The notes beneath the pieces are model-generated. The model made no database searches, had not been told where the DNA came from, and saw only the letters and a program-made list of their open reading frames with translations. Positions 7,222-40,679 of a stretch of 64,000 nt of DNA are shown here, piece after piece; the stretch's first letter is position 1, and each line of letters starts with the position of its first letter. Both the position numbers and the translations under genes were made by a program. The DNA lies in contig JAIRUS010000046.1 of NCBI GenBank assembly GCA_031254295.1, positions 2,973 through 66,972 on the forward strand. Direction: 5' to 3'. The stretch is from Streptococcaceae bacterium. Lineage in GTDB: Bacteria > Bacillota > Bacilli > Lactobacillales > Streptococcaceae.

Positions 7222-7250
7222 TTGACCCTCCCCCAAAAAAGTGATAAACT
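7222..7250 (+). promoter_or_regulatory. Sigma-A promoter of the riboswitch-deaminase transcript
   Basis: TTGACC-17 bp-TAAACT with TG extension. Confidence 0.75.
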
Positions 7251-7257
7251 AAGTCAA

Positions 7258-7324
7258 CTTATTTATACCCAGAATATGGCTGGGCGTCTCTACCTCGCAA
7301 CCAATGGAAATGCGGGACAATAAG
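7258..7324 (+). ncRNA. Purine riboswitch aptamer, guanine-type discriminator
   Basis: P1 CTTATT/AATAAG; P2 CCCAG/CTGGG with loop AATATGG; J2/3 GTCTCTAC; P3 CTCGCA/TGCGGG; C at 7318. Confidence 0.85.
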
Positions 7325-7475
7325 GTTGTTTTTTAACAGCTTTTTTGATAATCCAGTTCGCCCAAGCAGAAAACTAGGAAAAAAGATGACTTGGAACCTG
7401 CGCTTTGCGCAGAACCACAAGCTCCCTATTTTTCTACGTTTTCTATCATGCTAGGGCTAACTTTTTATGTAAAGT

Positions 7476-12676: not shown

Positions 12677-13738
12677 ATGACATTAAAAATGGGATTTATC
12701 GGCTTTGGTAAGTCGGCGACACGCTATCACTTGCCTTATGTGCTTTTGCGTGAAAATATTCAGGTGAAGACGATTATGAACTTGAAGGTAGATGAGGCGA
12801 TGGCAGCGCCTTATCGTGAAAAGGGAATCGGCTTTACTGAGAATATTGATGAACTGCTCAATGACCCTGAAATCAGTTTTGTGACGATTTGTACGCCACC
12901 GTCAACTCACTATGGCTTAGCCAAGCAGGTGATTGAAGCAGGTAAGTCAGTTGTTGTGGAGAAACCTTTCTGTGATTCAGTAGAGCATGCACGTGAGCTT
13001 TTTGCTTTGGCGCGTGAGCATGGTGTTGTTGTCACGCCTTATCAGAATCGTCGTTTTGATGGAGATTATCTGGCAGTTAAGCAGGTTATTGAACAGGGCT
13101 TCCTTGGTGATATTCTCGAGGTTGAAAGTCATATTGATTACTTCCGTCCAGGCACGTCGCGTCAGCCAGGGGCTAAAGAAAATGGGGCTTTTTATGGCTT
13201 GGGGATTCATCAGATGGATCGAATGCTGGCTCTTTTTGGCCGTCCAGAGACTGTAACTTACGACATCCGAAATAATGAGACGACAGAAACTGGCGCAACA
13301 GATAACTATTTTGATGTTGACTTGCATTATGGCAATCAGCTCAAAGTCAAAGTGAAAACGAACTATACGGTTGCCAAAGACTATCCACGCTTCATCGTGC
13401 ATGGTCGCAATGGTTCATTTATCAAATATGGCGAAGATCAGCAGGAAAATGATTTGAAAGCAGGTATCATGCCTGAAATTGCAGGCTTTGGTGAGGATTC
13501 GCCGATGCTTTACGGAATCGCGAAATATCGCAATGCCAATGGCGACTGGATTGAAAAACAGATTAAAACGCCTGTTGGCGACTATGGCCGTTTCTATGAT
13601 GCCCTTTATGAAACTTTGGTCAATGGAGCGGAGCCGCTCGTAACTGAGGAACAAGCTGTGACAGCGATTGAAATATTGGAAAATGGCTTTGCTGCAGAGA
13701 GCCCGTCGGTTTATAAACTCAAAATCCCAAATGTCTGA
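12677..13738 (+). CDS. Gfo/Idh/MocA oxidoreductase (YhhX-like)
   Basis: GFIGFGKSATRYHLP, VEKPF, YQNRRFDGD. Confidence 0.9.
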   Translation: MTLKMGFIGFGKSATRYHLPYVLLRENIQVKTIMNLKVDEAMAAPYREKGIGFTENIDELLNDPEISFVTICTPPSTHYGLAKQVIEAGKSVVVEKPFCDSVEHARELFALAREHGVVVTPYQNRRFDGDYLAVKQVIEQGFLGDILEVESHIDYFRPGTSRQPGAKENGAFYGLGIHQMDRMLALFGRPETVTYDIRNNETTETGATDNYFDVDLHYGNQLKVKVKTNYTVAKDYPRFIVHGRNGSFIKYGEDQQENDLKAGIMPEIAGFGEDSPMLYGIAKYRNANGDWIEKQIKTPVGDYGRFYDALYETLVNGAEPLVTEEQAVTAIEILENGFAAESPSVYKLKIPNV

Positions 13739-26321: not shown

Positions 26322-27908
26322 ATGATGGCAAAAATTCAGCGCTTTGGAGGCGCAATGTTCACGCCAGTTCTATTCTTTGTTTTTTCGGGATTGATTGTTT
26401 CGATTTTTGGGGTGTTAAATAATCCAGCAATTGTAGGAAGTATTGCAACAGATGGAACGACCTATCATGGAATTATGAAAGTTGTTGAAAATGGTGGCTG
26501 GACAGTTTTTAATAATATGGATATTCTCTTTGCTGTTGGGCTTCCTCTCGGATTAGCCAATAAAGCAAGAGGACGGGCAGCTCTGGAAGCCTTCCTGCTC
26601 TATATGACCTTTCAAACTTTTCTTTCAACTTTATTGGAAAATTTTGGAAAAATCGTTAAGATTGACTTTGCTTCTGAAGTTGGAGATACAGGAAAAGGCT
26701 TAACCATGATTGGGGGAATCAAGACGCTTGATACAGGAGTGCTTGGTGCCATTGTGATTGCTGCGATTATTGTCTATCTACACAATAAATTTTTCGATGT
26801 GCGTTTGCCAGATTGGCTCGGAATTTTCCAAGGCTCTGCCCTTGTAGCTGTGATTGGATTTGTTGTCATGTTTGCGTTAGCAATCGTCACTTTCTTTGTT
26901 TGGCCAATCCTCCAAAATGGAATTAATGACATGCAACATTTCATGGTGAAATCTGGTGATTTTGGGGTCTTTATCTATATTTTCCTTGAAAAAGCTTTGC
27001 TTCCGACGGGGTTACATCACTTCATTTATGCCCCATTTCAATTTGGCCCTGCAGTTGTAGAAGGTGGAACAACCCTTTATTGGTACGATCATTTACAACA
27101 ATTTGCAGCTTCTCATCAAACGTTGAAGTCTTTATTTCCAGCAGGAGGATTTGCACTCCAAGGTTTGTCAAATTTCTTTGGTGTACCAGGAATTGCACTG
27201 GCATTTTGGTCAACAACTAAAAAAGAAAATCGTAAGAAGCTTGCCGTGTTAATTATCCCAGGAGTGATTACCTCAGTCTTTGCAGGAATTACGGAGCCAT
27301 TTGATTATACTTTCCTCTTTATTGCACCTGTTCTATTCTTTGTTCATGCAGGTTTAGCTGCCATATTTGCAACAATTTCCTATGCGCTAGGCACGGTGGG
27401 AAATATGGGAGGTGGTTTGATTGAAATCACAACCTCCAATTTTATCCCTCTTTGGGCCAATCACTACATGACTTATATCGTCATGTTTGTTGTGGGAGCT
27501 TTCTCACTCTTGACTTACTTCCTTGTTTTCAGATTTTTAATTCTTAAGTTCAACTTTCAAACGCCTGGTCGAGCTGAAGGCGAAGTTCAGATGTTTCATA
27601 AAGAAGATTACAAGGCCAAAAAAGCCGCGAAAAAGTCAAACGGAGACTCTGCAAGTGATTCTCAATATGATGAGCAAGCCATCGGCTTGATAGAGGCTTT
27701 TGGTGGAGTTGAAAACATTGATACGATTACCAATTGTGCAACACGCCTGCGAGTTTCAGTTTTTGATGAAGCAAAGGTCTTGAGTGATGCGGATTTTAAA
27801 AACTATCAAGCCCTAGGCGTTGTAAGAAATGGCAAAGCCTTTCAAGTTATTATCGGTCTCTATGTTCCAAATTTACGGGAAGTTTTTGAAAAGATTGTCA
27901 AAGGTTAA
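26322..27908 (+). CDS. Alpha-glucoside PTS IICB (GlvC/AglA-like)
   Basis: IQRFGGAMFTPVL, PTGLHHFIYAPF, GITEPF, NCATRLR. Confidence 0.9.
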   Translation: MMAKIQRFGGAMFTPVLFFVFSGLIVSIFGVLNNPAIVGSIATDGTTYHGIMKVVENGGWTVFNNMDILFAVGLPLGLANKARGRAALEAFLLYMTFQTFLSTLLENFGKIVKIDFASEVGDTGKGLTMIGGIKTLDTGVLGAIVIAAIIVYLHNKFFDVRLPDWLGIFQGSALVAVIGFVVMFALAIVTFFVWPILQNGINDMQHFMVKSGDFGVFIYIFLEKALLPTGLHHFIYAPFQFGPAVVEGGTTLYWYDHLQQFAASHQTLKSLFPAGGFALQGLSNFFGVPGIALAFWSTTKKENRKKLAVLIIPGVITSVFAGITEPFDYTFLFIAPVLFFVHAGLAAIFATISYALGTVGNMGGGLIEITTSNFIPLWANHYMTYIVMFVVGAFSLLTYFLVFRFLILKFNFQTPGRAEGEVQMFHKEDYKAKKAAKKSNGDSASDSQYDEQAIGLIEAFGGVENIDTITNCATRLRVSVFDEAKVLSDADFKNYQALGVVRNGKAFQVIIGLYVPNLREVFEKIVKG

Positions 27909-27912
27909 AGAG

Positions 27913-28182
27913 ATGAATCAAGCATTAGTTACAGTGATTGGACTGCTGGCTTCATTTTTAACAACGGCCTCTTTTCTTCCGCAAGCCTTCTATGTGATCC
28001 GAACCAAAGATACAAAAAGTCTTTCTCTCCCAATGTATATCATGTTCGTCGTAGGAGTAATGAGCTGGTGTATATATGGACTGTTTTTACGGGACTTCCC
28101 GTTGATATTTGCCAATGTCGTCACAGGAATTTTTGCAGGGATTATATTATTTTATAAAATTAGGGAAAAGAAGAGTGGGTAA
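27913..28182 (+). CDS. SemiSWEET / PQ-loop transporter
   Basis: 89 aa, 3 TM, FLPQA motif, TKDTKSLS; ATG 27913. Confidence 0.88.
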   Translation: MNQALVTVIGLLASFLTTASFLPQAFYVIRTKDTKSLSLPMYIMFVVGVMSWCIYGLFLRDFPLIFANVVTGIFAGIILFYKIREKKSG

Positions 28183-28230
28183 GTTTGACAAAAAAGCTTT
28201 TATTAACTCTAGAAGATGTAACTTGAAGCA

Positions 28231-28306
28231 AAAGGAAAAGCTATTTGGGAGGATGACTTTTCTAGGAGTATTTATGAACAAGCCAACTAAGATTCGCAAG
28301 GAGTAT
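28231..28306 (-). ncRNA. csRNA-like small RNA, tandem copy 1
   Basis: -10 TATACT at 28313-28318; core TTCATAAATACTCCTAG; terminator-like hairpin 28234-28262. Confidence 0.6.
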
Positions 28307-28380
28307 GTAAATAGTATAAGTATTTTTTAGAGTTTCTATTAACAAAATTCATAAAATAGCAGGTACGTGATAGTTGAAAT

Positions 28381-28457
28381 AAAAAGAAAAGCCATCTTAG
28401 GGGGGTGGCTTTTCTAGGAGTATTTATGAACAAGTCAACTAAGACTTGTAGGAATAT
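28381..28457 (-). ncRNA. csRNA-like small RNA, tandem copy 2
   Basis: TTGAAA-16-TATACT (28464-28469); hairpin ACAAGTC/GACTTGT; same core; terminator hairpin. Confidence 0.65.
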
Positions 28458-28626
28458 GATACTAGTATAGCGCTTGACCTCAAAATTTCAATAACAAAGT
28501 TTAAAAAATTGTATAATTTAGGCTAAATTTGGACTGGTTTTCAAAAAATGATATTTGATTTTCTGAAAATCAGACCAAATTTTTTCATAATTACTATTTG
28601 AAAAATAGATTTTATAATTTAGGAGA

Positions 28627-28702
28627 AAGTGAAAAGCCATCTGAGGAGATGACTTTTCTAGGAGTATTTATGAACAAGTCTACAAAGACTTGTAAGGAGT
28701 AT
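28627..28702 (-). ncRNA. csRNA-like small RNA, tandem copy 3
   Basis: TGaTATACT (28709-28714); hairpin ACAAGTC/GACTTGT; same core; terminator hairpin. Confidence 0.65.
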
Positions 28703-28833
28703 GAAAATAGTATATCATTTGTTTTAGAAAAATTCATTAACAAAGCTCACAAAGTTGTATTGAATTAGAGAAAAAATATAGCAGATGCTCTAAGGTTTCC
28801 TGTATTGGAGAAAAAAAGTAGTAGAATTATTCT

Positions 28834-30576
28834 ATGATTAACATTGGAAAAAAGTATTTACAAGCTTTGCCAGTAACTCTGGCAATTTTATTTTTAATTG
28901 TGCAGGTTGTGACAAACTTGATGTTGCCTAATATCACTGCGGATATTATCAATAAAGGAATTGCGAAATCAAATCTGAATTATATCTGGATGCAAGGTTT
29001 TTGGATGTTGCTTGTTGCTTTGATTTCTTGGCTGGCAGCTATTTTAAATGTTTATTTTGCTTCACAACAGTCCCAGAGGCTTGGTAGAAAACTGCGCTCG
29101 GATGTATTTAAGCGGATCGTCAAAATGGATGAATCAAGCTTTAAAGAATTTGGAGATGCAACCTTAATCACGCGTAGCACAAATGATGTTACACAGCTCC
29201 AGAATGTCTATCAGACCGCACTTCGGATGATGCTAATGTCGCCTCTTATGTTAGTTGGTTCAATTTTTATGGCTTGGAATCTTGATCATAACTTAATTTT
29301 GGTCTTTCTGGTGGCTTTACCTCTTTTGGCTATTGCGGCTGTGATAAATATTATGCTGGTCATGCCACGTTTTCGTAAAATGCAAGAGAAGATTGACAAG
29401 ATAAATTTGGTTTTTCAGCAGGGCTTAACGGGTGTACGGGTGATTCGTGCATTTAACCGAGATGATTATGAGCTTGAGAAATTTGATCTAGCAAATAAAG
29501 ACCTTACGAGAATTAGCCAATTTGTGATGGCAACTGTGGCTATGCTTGGGCCAATTATGACCGTGATTTTGTCAGCGACAAATCTAGCCATTGTCTGGTT
29601 TGGCGCTCAGCTCATCGGAAAAGGACTTATGGGAATGGGAAATCTGGTGGCTTTCCTGACCTATGCCAATCAGATTTTATTGTCATTTATGCAATTAACT
29701 GCGGTGATGGTGATGATTCCACGGGCGCAGGTTTCAGCTGTTCGGGTTAGTGAGGTATTGAATAGTAAAGAGAAAATCCTAGAGCCTGTAAATCCGATTG
29801 AATTACTTTCGGCCGATGAAATGAAATTTGAAAAAGTTACATTTGCTTTTTCTCAGGCAGAGCGTCCGGCCTTATCAGATATTAACTTCACTGTCAAAAA
29901 AGGCAAAACATTGGCGATTATTGGTGGTACAGGTTCAGGGAAATCAACCTTGCTCAATCTGATTGTGCGTCTGATGGACGTAAGTTCTGGAAATATTTCA
30001 ATTTCAGGGATAGATATTCGTAATCTAAGCCAGAAAGCTCTACATGACAAGGTTTCATTAACTCAGCAGAAGGCAGTTTTATTCTCCGGAACTATTCGCA
30101 GTAATATGCTTTTTGGAAAACAAGACGCAAGTGATGAGGAAATCTGGTCAGCCCTTGAGATTGCTCAAGCTAGTGATTTTGTCAAAGTCCAGGGCGGGCT
30201 TGAGATGACAGTTGAGCAAAATGGTAGTAATTTCTCTGGTGGTCAACGTCAACGCCTTGCGATTGCGCGTACCTTAATCAAAAAAGCAGATTTTTACTGT
30301 TTTGATGATTCATTTAGCGCGCTTGACTTTGCGACAGATGCCAAGTTGCGAGCTGCCATAAATGCCAGTCCAAGTCATCGAGATAAGATAAAGATTATTG
30401 TAGCTCAGCGTATCGCAACCGTCATGAATGCTGATTTAATTTTGGTGCTTGATAAAGGGCAAGAAGTTGGATTTGGTAGCCATGCGGAGCTGGTCAAAAG
30501 TTGTGAAACCTATCAGGACATCATGCGCTCGCAGCTGTCAGATAAAGATTTGGAAAAAATGGGGGTGACCTTATGA
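28834..30576 (+). CDS. Heterodimeric ABC exporter subunit 1
   Basis: TM domain + GGTGSGKST, FSGGQRQR, degenerate Walker B FDD. Confidence 0.92.
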   Translation: MINIGKKYLQALPVTLAILFLIVQVVTNLMLPNITADIINKGIAKSNLNYIWMQGFWMLLVALISWLAAILNVYFASQQSQRLGRKLRSDVFKRIVKMDESSFKEFGDATLITRSTNDVTQLQNVYQTALRMMLMSPLMLVGSIFMAWNLDHNLILVFLVALPLLAIAAVINIMLVMPRFRKMQEKIDKINLVFQQGLTGVRVIRAFNRDDYELEKFDLANKDLTRISQFVMATVAMLGPIMTVILSATNLAIVWFGAQLIGKGLMGMGNLVAFLTYANQILLSFMQLTAVMVMIPRAQVSAVRVSEVLNSKEKILEPVNPIELLSADEMKFEKVTFAFSQAERPALSDINFTVKKGKTLAIIGGTGSGKSTLLNLIVRLMDVSSGNISISGIDIRNLSQKALHDKVSLTQQKAVLFSGTIRSNMLFGKQDASDEEIWSALEIAQASDFVKVQGGLEMTVEQNGSNFSGGQRQRLAIARTLIKKADFYCFDDSFSALDFATDAKLRAAINASPSHRDKIKIIVAQRIATVMNADLILVLDKGQEVGFGSHAELVKSCETYQDIMRSQLSDKDLEKMGVTL

Positions 30577-32387
30577 TGCGTGGAAATTATCTAAAGCGAG
30601 ATGGAGCGGCTGGCCGATTTGGTAATCGCAGTCAAAAGCCGGTCAAGTTCTGGCCCACGATTACTCGACTTTTTGGCTATATGGAGCATGATAAATGGGG
30701 CGTCATCTTTAGTTTGATTATTGCGGCTGTGTCGGTTATTTTATCTGTTCAGGCGCCGAAGATTTTGGGAACTGCAACAACGATTGTCGCAAAAGGAGTG
30801 ACAAGCAAGTCAGGAATAAACTTTGATAAAGTTGGCTCAATTTTGCTGACAGTTGCGATTATTTATGCTGTGAGTTTTGTCTCTGGTATTTTGCAGCAAC
30901 AAGTCATGACGCGTATTTCTCAACGGACAGTTTATCGGCTACGTAAACAATTTAAAAGCAAGATGGTGAAGCTTCCGGTCAGCTATTACGATCGGCATTC
31001 AAATGGTGATATTATGTCTCGTATGATTAATGACATGGATAATATCGCGGGGACCTTAAACCAGACTTTGATTCAGGTGGTGACATCGGCGTTACAATTT
31101 ATTGGCGTTTGTTATTTTATGTTGACGATTAACTGGCTGCTTGCTTTAGTGGCCTTTGTGACAGTGCCTTTGGCAATTGTTCTGGTGCGCGTGATTGCGC
31201 CCCTGTCGCAGAAATATTTTTCTGAACAGCAAAAAAATCTAGGTTTATTAAATAATCAAATCGAGGAAAATTATGCAGGACATACTGTGATTAAAACATT
31301 TAATCATCAGGAGACGGCATTGCTAGAATTTGATGAAAAAAATGAAAAGTTCTTCAAAGCTGCTTGGCGCGCCCAATTTGTCTCGACTCTTATTTTTCCG
31401 ACAATGCGTTTTTTGAATAACCTAGATTATCTAGCTATGGCAGTTATTGGTGGTATTTATGTCGTGAACGGTCAGGTAAATATTGGTGATGTTCAAGCTA
31501 TGTTGCAGTATACGAATCAATTTAGTCAGCCCATCACAAATATGTCAAATTTGATTAATACAATTCAGGCGACAGCGGCTTCTGCTGAACGCATTTTTGC
31601 CCTTTTAGACGAAGAAGAGATGAAAGAACTTCAAGCAGTTGAGGATATAGAGACAGACAGTATTATCCGCTTTGATGATGTGGCCTTTGCCTATGTTGAG
31701 GATCAGCCTCTGATGACAGATGTTTCAATCGAAGTAACCGAGGGAGAAATGGTCGCAATTGTTGGCCCAACAGGTGCTGGGAAGACTACGCTGATTAATC
31801 TGCTTGAGCGTTTTTATGAGAGCACTGCTGGTACGATTCGCTTATGGGGCAAAGATACGAAAGGCCTCAGTCGAGAAGTACTTCGTTCAAAAATTTCTAT
31901 GGTACTTCAAGATACTTGGCTTTTCTCAGGGACAATTCGTGATAATCTTCGTTATGGGAAGCTTGAGGCGACAGACGATGAAATCTATCAAGCTTCTAAA
32001 ATGGCTTACGCAGATGAATTTATCAAGACTTTACCGCAAGGCTATGACACAGTTTTGAATGAAGAAGCCAGTAATATTTCACAAGGACAACGTCAGCTTT
32101 TGACAATTGCCCGTGCTTTTCTAGTAAATCCAGAAATCCTAATCCTCGATGAGGCGACATCATCAGTTGATACACGCACTGAGCGCATGATTCAAGAGGC
32201 AATGTCTCGTTTGTTAAAAGGTCGCACGAGTTTTGTTGTGGCGCACCGCCTGTCTACGATTCGTGACGCAGATCAAATCTTGGTTATGAATCAAGGGAAT
32301 ATTGTGGAGCAGGGAACACACAAGACGCTTCTAGCGAGTGGAGGAATGTATGCAGATTTGTATAATTCACAGTTCGCAGAGGCTTGA
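30573..32387 (+). CDS. Heterodimeric ABC exporter subunit 2
   Basis: TM domain + GPTGAGKTT, ISQGQRQ, ILDEATS. Confidence 0.92.
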   Translation: MMRGNYLKRDGAAGRFGNRSQKPVKFWPTITRLFGYMEHDKWGVIFSLIIAAVSVILSVQAPKILGTATTIVAKGVTSKSGINFDKVGSILLTVAIIYAVSFVSGILQQQVMTRISQRTVYRLRKQFKSKMVKLPVSYYDRHSNGDIMSRMINDMDNIAGTLNQTLIQVVTSALQFIGVCYFMLTINWLLALVAFVTVPLAIVLVRVIAPLSQKYFSEQQKNLGLLNNQIEENYAGHTVIKTFNHQETALLEFDEKNEKFFKAAWRAQFVSTLIFPTMRFLNNLDYLAMAVIGGIYVVNGQVNIGDVQAMLQYTNQFSQPITNMSNLINTIQATAASAERIFALLDEEEMKELQAVEDIETDSIIRFDDVAFAYVEDQPLMTDVSIEVTEGEMVAIVGPTGAGKTTLINLLERFYESTAGTIRLWGKDTKGLSREVLRSKISMVLQDTWLFSGTIRDNLRYGKLEATDDEIYQASKMAYADEFIKTLPQGYDTVLNEEASNISQGQRQLLTIARAFLVNPEILILDEATSSVDTRTERMIQEAMSRLLKGRTSFVVAHRLSTIRDADQILVMNQGNIVEQGTHKTLLASGGMYADLYNSQFAEA

Positions 32388-33769: not shown

Positions 33770-34057
33770 GACCTTCTGAACTTTCTGCTTTAAATTATAA
33801 CGTAAAATATTGCAAACGGCCATTTTGTAATATTTTATTAAAAGGAGCGCTAGAAAGTTTGTTGACCATTTACTCTAATGTGCTAAAGCATAAAGGTAAA
33901 TCACAGCGACTTTTGTTTGCTTGTTCTTGATTTATCAAGATCCGAGCATTTCGCCTTATAACAAAAAGTGAAGAGAAGCGTTTTGAAGCGTAGAAAGATG
34001 GGACTAAAAATAATGAAAGACCTAGCTTCTGTGCTTGTTTGGTTATATAGTGTTGTT

Positions 34058-34170
34058 AAAAAAGTAAAAAGCCCCAACGGGACTTTTTACTTTTAGGAGT
34101 AATTTATGAAAAAGTTTTTGAAGCTTTCGCTTCATTTTAGAGGTGTTTAGGAGTCACCTCTTAGGAGTAT
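34058..34170 (-). ncRNA. CiaR-dependent-type small RNA (csRNA)
   Basis: TTTCAG-5-TTTAAG-10-TATAAT promoter; three ACTCCT anti-SD tracts; TTTTTCATAAATTACTCCT core; terminator AAAGTCCC-GTT-GGGGCTTTTT. Confidence 0.8.
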
Positions 34171-34227
34171 AATTGTATTATAGAGTAGCTAACTTAAAGC
34201 AATCTGAAAGTTTATAAAATTAAAATT

Positions 34228-40509: not shown

Positions 40510-40574
40510 AAAAGTAAAAGAAAAGCTAGGTTCAACAACCTAGCTTTCCCGGAGAATTTATGAAGATCTTCTTT
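40510..40574 (-). ncRNA. Short CiaR-dependent-type small RNA (csRNA)
   Basis: TTTAAG-5-TCTAAG-10-TATAAT; core TTCATAAATTCTCC; terminator AAAGCTAGG-TTGTTGAA-CCTAGCTTTT. Confidence 0.75.
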
Positions 40575-40679
40575 AAATATATTATAAGCCATAGAGCTTA
40601 GAAAGAACTTAAAAAATACGATAAAATACAGTAAAATAGAAGCTAAAGATAATTTAAAAAATATAGGAATTTAATTAAT

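Follow-up and report, generated by a model that had tools for sequence, protein, structure and literature searches.

Three tandem csRNA-like genes without a CiaR box in a Lactovum genome from a termite gut

Introduction

The cia-dependent small RNAs (csRNAs), such as ccnA-E of Streptococcus pneumoniae (Rfam family RF02379), have so far been defined and studied only as outputs of CiaRH in Streptococcus (Halfmann 2007; Marx 2010, PMC3091779). Here we analyze three tandem units on the minus strand of a 64,000-nt stretch of DNA (the window; positions 2,973 to 66,972 of contig JAIRUS010000046.1, here C51, in assembly GCA_031254295.1), which are probably genes for small RNAs (sRNAs) of the csRNA lineage. 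The genome is a termite-gut metagenome-assembled genome of 181 contigs and 2.12 Mb that belongs to the genus of Lactovum miscens.

A csRNA gene is a small intergenic gene (51-202 nt) with a -10 element, a start 7 nt downstream and an intrinsic terminator, and its RNA carries unpaired CUCCU and CAU tracts complementary to the Shine-Dalgarno (SD) sequence and the start codon AUG. The tandem units share these features, together with a near-identical UUCAUAA..CUCCUA core, the TATACT -10 element, a C at -1, the occurrence in multiple and at times tandem copies, and reciprocal covariance-model matches. They differ from csRNA genes in that an extended -10 or a -35 element is found instead of the NTTAAG-N5-TTTAAG box, in that the first anti-SD tract lies at the free 5' end, where csRNAs place it in a hairpin loop, and in their host, which is Lactovum and not Streptococcus. 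In the survey of Marx 2010 (PMC3091779), csRNA candidates without the G residues of the CiaR repeat were discarded, as these residues are critical for activation; a C immediately before the start was recognized as a csRNA promoter trait, and CiaRH was said to be missing from Lactococcus and other genera.

Tandem csRNA duplicates are already known from S. sanguinis (csRNA1-1 and csRNA1-2; PMC8186281). Like csRNA1-1, csRNA1-2 and csRNA1-3 of that species, and like arrays in two further genomes described below, the units are head-to-tail local duplicates with their own promoter and terminator each; all those arrays keep CiaR boxes, whereas the units analyzed here do not. In S. pneumoniae, csRNAs repress comC additively and three of them are needed (Laux 2015, PMC4507080). 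The present case resembles comC control in that several sRNAs with the same seed would act on the SD/AUG region of a competence regulator, with a relevance of dose, and differs in its target, which is predicted, by computation only, to be comX (sigma X). Our literature search found no paper on csRNAs outside Streptococcus, on box-less csRNA homologues or on a comX-directed csRNA.

Results

Three minus-strand units share an invariant core

All three units are housed in a 651-nt gap between an open reading frame (ORF) that ends at 28182 and one that starts at 28834. On the minus strand, each unit of about 80 nt reads TATACT, six bases ending in C, ATA(C/T)TCC, a hairpin, the core, and a second hairpin with a T-rich tract, so that the 5' tract CATA(C/T)TCC starts 6 nt downstream of each -10 element. 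The predicted RNA is 72-80 nt long. The initial annotation had described minus-strand units of about 75 nt with just these parts, and direct re-reading found its repeats, -10 elements, 5' tracts, hairpins, core and upstream motif all correctly placed.

In copy 3 (28624..28703, minus strand), the 5' (C)AUACUCCUU tract is followed by a hairpin of 8 bp, by the core, which is predicted to be single-stranded, and by the terminator (28631-28658). Copy 2 (28379..28458, minus strand) has a 7-bp hairpin, the core and the best U-tract among the three (UUUUCUUUUUAUUU). Copy 1 (28228..28307, minus strand) keeps the core intact, while its hairpin and terminator are both weakened. The internal hairpin is ACAAGTC/GACTTGT in copies 2 and 3; in copy 1 it contains three G:U pairs and a single A-C mismatch. 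In all three, the layout is that of a csRNA gene, intergenic and with a -10 element and an intrinsic terminator within 250 nt, the terminator of copy 1 being weak.

The core TTGTTCATAAATACTCCTAGAAAAG, or UUGUUCAUAAAUACUCCUAGAAAAG as RNA, is composed of an anti-AUG tract, a 5-nt spacer and an anti-SD tract, and is identical at 28653-28677, 28409-28433 and 28257-28281 (minus strand). When the three copies were aligned, 90 of 162 columns were identical, and 26 of these form one unbroken run across the core. Because none of 100,000 permutations of the identity pattern reached a run of this length, chance is excluded as the source of the invariant core, and the comparison of the copies indicates that selection is acting on the seed.

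The predicted fold of copy 3 has an energy of -24.2 kcal/mol (z -6.2 against shuffled sequences) and that of copy 2 an energy of -20.6 kcal/mol (z -5.5). Both pyrimidine tracts, AUACUCCUU and UCAUAAAUACUCCUA, are single-stranded in the minimum free energy and centroid folds of copies 2 and 3 and of the L. miscens homologue, in line with the earlier proposal that these tracts are available for pairing with SD/AUG regions.

At the DNA level, the array consists of three direct repeats of an 89-nt unit (28230-28318, 28382-28470 and 28626-28714), spaced 152 and 244 nt apart. The unit is confined to these three copies in the 2.12-Mb genome, and the other two are 81% and 80% identical to copy 3. When the source reads (run X1, termite gut metagenome) were assembled independently, each unique inter-copy piece was present at a depth similar to that of the flanks; therefore the triplication is real and not an assembly artefact.

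The wider spacer, between copies 3 and 2, contains a long AU-rich imperfect hairpin (28525-28583, on both strands; -25.9 kcal/mol, z -5.2) that occurs nowhere else in the genome and has a direct repeat of TATAATTTAGG on either side (28503-28527 and 28604-28628). This segment accounts for the spacing of 244 nt against 152 nt. A mobile-element reading, or one as a repetitive extragenic palindromic (REP)-like sequence, was rejected, since neither the unit nor the spacer hairpin recurs elsewhere in the genome.

The units are related to canonical csRNAs of the same genome

The host encodes CiaRH. Contig C93 encodes a CiaR orthologue of the OmpR type, whose recognition helix reads VVEVYMSKIRKKL (VVEVYVSKVRKKL in the pneumococcus), and after it comes a histidine kinase (H-box SHELRTPL). 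A whole-genome scan for canonical csRNA genes, with the pattern TTTAAG-N5-TTTAAG-N9-11-(-10), returned four sRNA genes, each with a canonical CiaR box spaced 10 nt from the -10 element. Two of them lie inside the window and served as comparators: one at 34057..34171 (minus strand; TTTCAG-N5-TTTAAG-N10-TATAAT) and a minimal one at 40514..40583 (minus strand; TTTAAG-N5-TCTAAG-N10-TATAAT). The others, also with a CiaR box, are at C143:11360-11455 (minus strand) and on C34 near 5660 (plus strand). The canonical cores, UUUUUCAUAAAU(A/U)ACUCCUAAAA, for example CUUUUUCAUAAAUAACUCCUAAAAAC, nearly equal the tandem core, and the common core is UUCAUAAAU(A)ACUCCUA.

We built a covariance model, R1, from the three copies and the L. 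miscens homologue alone, with a shortened calibration that leaves its E-values rough. It scores copies 3, 2 and 1 at 102.9, 89.5 and 93.6 bits, and the window comparators at 28.2 (34057..34171) and 33.0 bits (40514..40583). Matches with E <= 0.01 were found in 128 of 201 Streptococcaceae genomes. Among the 27 matches inspected, 17 have a CiaR box with at most 2 mismatches, and 12 have a perfect TTTAAG-N5-TTTAAG-N10-TATACT, thus sharing the unusual -10 element of the tandem copies. Since a model trained only on the tandem type retrieves genuine CiaR-box csRNAs, the three units are csRNA homologues. This result, and the core held in common with the four canonical csRNAs, bear out the relatedness proposed in the initial annotation. 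Judged from sequence, the units are csRNA paralogues by descent and architecture, not strict csRNAs as defined by a CiaR-dependent promoter.

Several observations concern the csRNA family at large. A scan of genome contigs with the exact core pattern was swamped by ordinary gene starts (SD plus ATGAACAA), the L. miscens record being its one useful result. A two-seed pattern scan of metagenome contigs found many copies of a CiaR-box csRNA from another Streptococcaceae genus, and found no further hairpin-type homologues. This highly conserved csRNA of about 70 nt (CATACTCCTAAATAAACTTTTTTCATAAATACTCCTAAAA plus terminator), which is probably lactococcal, stands behind TTTAAG-N5-TTTCAG-N10-TATAAT in genus g9 (L138/L139) and in human-gut and food metagenome contigs (L186-L209); its two seeds are identical to those of the tandem genes, and it has no internal hairpin. 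Tandem arrays of two or three csRNA genes occur elsewhere, at G004:C39:4900-5700 (L165) and G016:C1:190200-190800 (L177), and the second copy of the former, a Lactovum array, has by eye a CiaR-type box, TTTTAG-N5-TTAAAG-N10-TATAAT. Tandem amplification thus appears to be recurrent in the csRNA family.

The CiaR box is missing from the tandem promoters

The TATACT -10 elements lie at 28313-28318 (copy 1), 28464-28469 (copy 2) and 28709-28714 (copy 3) on the minus strand. In copy 3 the element is TG-extended (TGATATACT, 28709..28717, minus strand), with C and A 6 and 7 nt downstream and a predicted start at A28702. The promoter of copy 2, TTGAAA-16-TATACT (28464..28491, minus strand), matches 10 of 12 positions and is the best sigma-70-like site of the region, while copy 1 has no more than TTAATA-18-TATACT. 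The TG-extended -10 element is common to copy 3, the L. miscens homologue and the homologue in a third Lactovum genome (G003), and TGATATACT itself is also present in L. miscens. The -10 element, the C at -1 and the A at +1 are kept in all five homologues.

We compared the sequence at the canonical spacing of 10 with the 12 positions of the CiaR box. The mismatches number 5 in copy 3 (GTTAAT/TTTCTA), 6 in copy 2, 10 in copy 1, 6 in the L. miscens orthologue and 8 in the G003 homologue, against 1-2 in the four canonical csRNA genes of the same genome. A repeat of NTTAAG-N5-TTTAAG, 10 bp upstream of the -10 element and with both G residues kept, is thus absent, and the essential G residues are lost in all three copies, so that the box was rightly called missing at the outset. 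The promoters of copies 3 and 2 look self-sufficient, owing to the TG-extended -10 and the -35 element, respectively. The simplest history would be that a CiaR-dependent ancestor lost the box and gained promoter elements that need no activator.

A csRNA-like gene in genus g5 (G108:C1:515532-515596, minus strand; L137/L174) also has a TATACT -10 element (R1, 41 bits) and no recognizable CiaR box, its best match having 4 mismatches at the wrong distance. Box-less csRNA paralogues may therefore occur beyond Lactovum. Genus g5 is probably Streptococcus, given that 12 inspected hits in it are classical TTTAAG-N5-TTTAAG-N10-TATACT csRNA genes.

We also considered the motif TTTGTTA(A/T)T (TTTGTTAAT), which is present upstream of all three copies (28736-28744, 28490-28498 and 28338-28346, minus strand) within the duplicated unit, and which had been put forward as the site of a different regulator. 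This proposal did not hold up. The motif occurs 135 times genome-wide, and TTGTTAWT, with the first T dropped, stands at this distance upstream of a -10 element only in the three copies and at three unrelated chance sites in the genome, with no hint of a regulon. Neither L. miscens (CCGTAAATAAT) nor G003 conserves it. We doubt a regulatory role because the motif is non-conserved, lies inside the duplicated unit and otherwise stands at this distance from a -10 element solely at chance sites; it is probably a relic of the duplicated unit, shared by ancestry.

Other operators were tried and rejected. For a WalR-type TGTWAH-N5-TGTWAH, only the first half-site fits by eye, the full repeat occurring elsewhere in the genome and not at these promoters. 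For a CodY box or a catabolite-responsive element (cre), the best match has 3 mismatches, in L. miscens alone; the copies have 4-5, and 668 genome sites have 3 or fewer.

Homologues in Lactovum keep the layout and vary the stems

The same-genus relative L. miscens DSM 14925 (G001) has one homologue (NZ_JACHHV010000017.1, ~13005-13083), divergent from an orthologous ATP-binding cassette (ABC)-exporter pair with a major facilitator superfamily (MFS) gene beyond it, as in the window. It agrees with the tandem type at 16 of 16 nt of the 5' tract and differs from it by 2 changes in the core. The predicted fold has the same architecture (-15.1 kcal/mol, z -3.6). When its terminator stem is compared with that of copy 3, one change is compensatory on both sides, two are one-sided and compatible, and none is disruptive. 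The G003 homologue has the same layout, with 5' CATACTCCTTA, a hairpin GGAGAG/CTCTCC, TTTTCATAATTACTCCTTG and a terminator, and its stem sequences are entirely different; it lies downstream of the ABC pair in the same orientation. The seeds read UUCAUAAACACUCCUC in L. miscens and UUCAUAAUUACUCCUUG in G003, and a start region matching the L. miscens seed would read GAGGAGUGUUUAUG.

As its promoter (AAATGATATACT) and position are common to copy 3 and the L. miscens gene, copy 3 is probably the ancestral copy, with copies 2 and 1 as likely local duplicates. Three copies against one at the syntenic L. miscens site are what the amplification suggested by the initial annotation would predict.

comX is the leading predicted target

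We called 2,458 candidate start sites crudely across the genome and computed their duplex energies with the core (mean -9.0, standard deviation 3.1 kcal/mol). The best duplex genome-wide, at -27.0 kcal/mol, is with the start region of a 157-aa ComX homologue on contig C49 (UAUCUAGGAGUAUUUAUGUACGAA). It comprises 15 perfect pairs over CUAGGAGUAUUUAUG, from CUAG through AUG, and four further pairs past one mismatch. Canonical csRNA cores reach at most -15.4 kcal/mol on this site, and, apart from the sRNA genes, no other genomic site comes within 3 mismatches of the 21-nt complement. For the genes neighboring the array, the energies were ordinary, from -3 to -14 kcal/mol.

The 157-aa protein has weak sigma-70 matches and 119 HMMER homologues, and the closest named ones are annotated as "competence protein ComX" or "competence-specific sigma factor ComX" (Floricoccus, Lactococcus and Pseudolactococcus). 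Its gene (C49:1740-2213, plus strand) is single-copy, adjoins pyrG and has no comR-like gene next to it. These results are suggestive, and comX is the leading, best predicted target.

Discussion

We propose, with a probability of roughly 0.7, that the three units arose by tandem duplication and encode a trans-acting sRNA of csRNA lineage, 72-80 nt long, that represses translation by pairing. Minus-strand transcription of each copy would start at a sigma-A promoter of its own, in which the TATACT -10 element is aided by a TG extension or by a -35 element at the place of the canonical CiaR direct repeat, and would end at its own intrinsic terminator. Two tracts would be exposed in the RNA, 5' AUACUCCUU and, between hairpin and terminator, UUCAUAAAUACUCCUA, the latter complementary to an SD, a 5-nt spacer and AUG. 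Pairing of UUCAUAAAUACUCCUA with SD-to-AUG regions, perhaps helped by the 5' tract, would block ribosome loading and repress translation. Three identical seeds would raise the dose additively, and without the CiaR box this dose would no longer follow the CiaRH signal.

Several points weigh against this interpretation or parts of it. None of the RNA sequencing runs searched for the stretch holds it; transcription, repression and comX as the main target are what we infer. We likewise infer CiaR independence from the promoters, and a missing recognizable box is no proof of it. Copy 1 folds at only -7.7 kcal/mol (z +0.15), both of its helices being destabilized, and is possibly in decay. The antisense strand folds as well as the sense strand, so that folding makes no strand call; strand calls by folding energy or G:U pairs were rejected for this reason. 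In Rfam, the purine riboswitch is the sole match of the window at gathering thresholds. The csRNA model RF02379, suggested earlier as a check, did align with copy 3 over its full length, yet at 22.2 bits (E 2.4), below the gathering score of 57, and at E-value thresholds this match sits among noise (Phe_leader, nse_sRNA and miRNAs). We regard the RF02379 result as uninformative, since the canonical csRNAs of this genome also fall below 57 (the best at 36 bits, the others outside the ten best and so below 18 bits); the model is narrow. As for comX, 12 of 300 seed permutations with CAU and CUCCU fixed reach -27 kcal/mol somewhere in the genome (p ~0.04), a modest significance. A crude genome scan for a regulon of the streptococcal-type cin-box (TACGAATA) showed no enrichment, and the ComX start regions of three related organisms are unlike this one.

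We next weighed readings in which the units are csRNA relatives of another standing. They might be silent relics. In this view, csRNA genes were deprived of the CiaR-dependent promoter and duplicated, and their descendants are decaying unexpressed. The absent CiaR box, the loss of both stable helices in copy 1 and the lack of an RNA run that holds the stretch fit such a history. A seed that stays invariant over 26 columns while its flanks diverge does not fit it, and neither do the -10 element, TG extension and C/A start context kept between species, the compensatory or compatible stem changes in L. miscens and G003, or the good -35 element gained by copy 2, and we consider silent relics unlikely. 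The units might instead be ordinary csRNAs with unusual promoters that are still controlled by CiaR, through a degenerate or non-canonical site or indirectly. A classical csRNA promoter likewise has TATACT, a C at -1 and this start position, copy 3 has GTTAAT/TTTCTA at the box position, and at S. suis satRAB a site that deviates at three positions is reportedly bound by CiaR (PMC9241815). However, 5, 6 and 10 of the 12 box positions are mismatched in the copies, compared with 1-2 in the canonical genes. The copies also lack both essential G residues, a lack for which Marx 2010 (PMC3091779) discarded candidates, and the box is absent from L. miscens and G003 as well, so that continued CiaR control seems quite unlikely.

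The strand is the other issue. The plus strand could be the functional one, with the hairpin, an SD and a mini-ORF forming a leader peptide or attenuator for the ABC exporter operon, or encoding small peptides. B. subtilis bmrB acts as such a leader for bmrCD. All copies have a perfect SD, 5 nt and ATG on this strand, the array points at the ABC exporter gene at 28834 in a synteny kept in L. miscens, plus-strand RNA folds as well as minus-strand RNA, and a TATAAT is present at 28612-28617 (plus strand; repeat D3). However, the predicted peptides, of 18, 14, 32, 29 and 9 aa, share MNK(S/P)T alone, which the RNA seed itself imposes, and 1-nt indels shift the frames among copies. The hairpin precedes each ORF rather than following it, and its plus-strand U-tract is short (UUUUCU), the U-tracts being longer on the minus strand. 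The G003 homologue lies downstream, not upstream, of the ABC pair in the same orientation. Homology to canonical csRNAs fixes the orientation as well, since their CiaR promoters are unambiguous. Thus the promoter context in five homologues, the longer U-tracts, the csRNA orientation and the non-conserved mini-ORFs favor the minus strand, and we hold a plus-strand function to be very improbable.

Under the preferred reading of the units as csRNA-lineage sRNA genes, a bolder and rather doubtful extension is that a Lactovum csRNA lineage escaped CiaRH, gained sigma-A-sufficient promoters and was triplicated as a dose-set, CiaR-independent brake on ComX translation. If this were true, the link between csRNAs and competence would have been rewired from comC in Streptococcus to comX.

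The four canonical csRNAs and the ciaRH-like operon of this Lactovum genome mean that the CiaR-csRNA circuit reaches Streptococcaceae genera beyond Streptococcus. In the same genome, canonical csRNAs coexist with box-less paralogues that keep the seed and the core promoter, which looks like a natural rewiring of an sRNA to a different transcriptional input; the amplified paralogues are the rewired ones, and their seed fits the comX start far better than canonical seeds do. If confirmed, the locus would offer a tractable case of sRNA-regulon evolution through promoter turnover, gene dosage and target shift, and would suggest that post-transcriptional control of competence by the csRNA family predates the genus Streptococcus. 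L. miscens DSM 14925, being cultured and having a single copy, is a suitable test organism.

Neighboring features of the window

The left neighbor of the gap is a SWEET-like ORF (27829-28182, plus strand), and the right neighbors are the two genes of the ABC-exporter pair (28834-30576 and 30573-32387, plus strand). The 5' leader of the exporter operon (28745-28833, plus strand) stands back-to-back with the sRNA promoter; it reads GAGAAA..AAAGTAGTAGAATTA, 4 nt, ATG, and is conserved in L. miscens (L014 1390-1500). A heterodimeric ABC exporter of S. suis, SatAB, is under direct CiaR control (PMC9241815). Farther upstream in the window, the purine riboswitch aptamer (RF00167) lies at 7239-7340 (plus strand), with 54.9 bits against a gathering score of 37.

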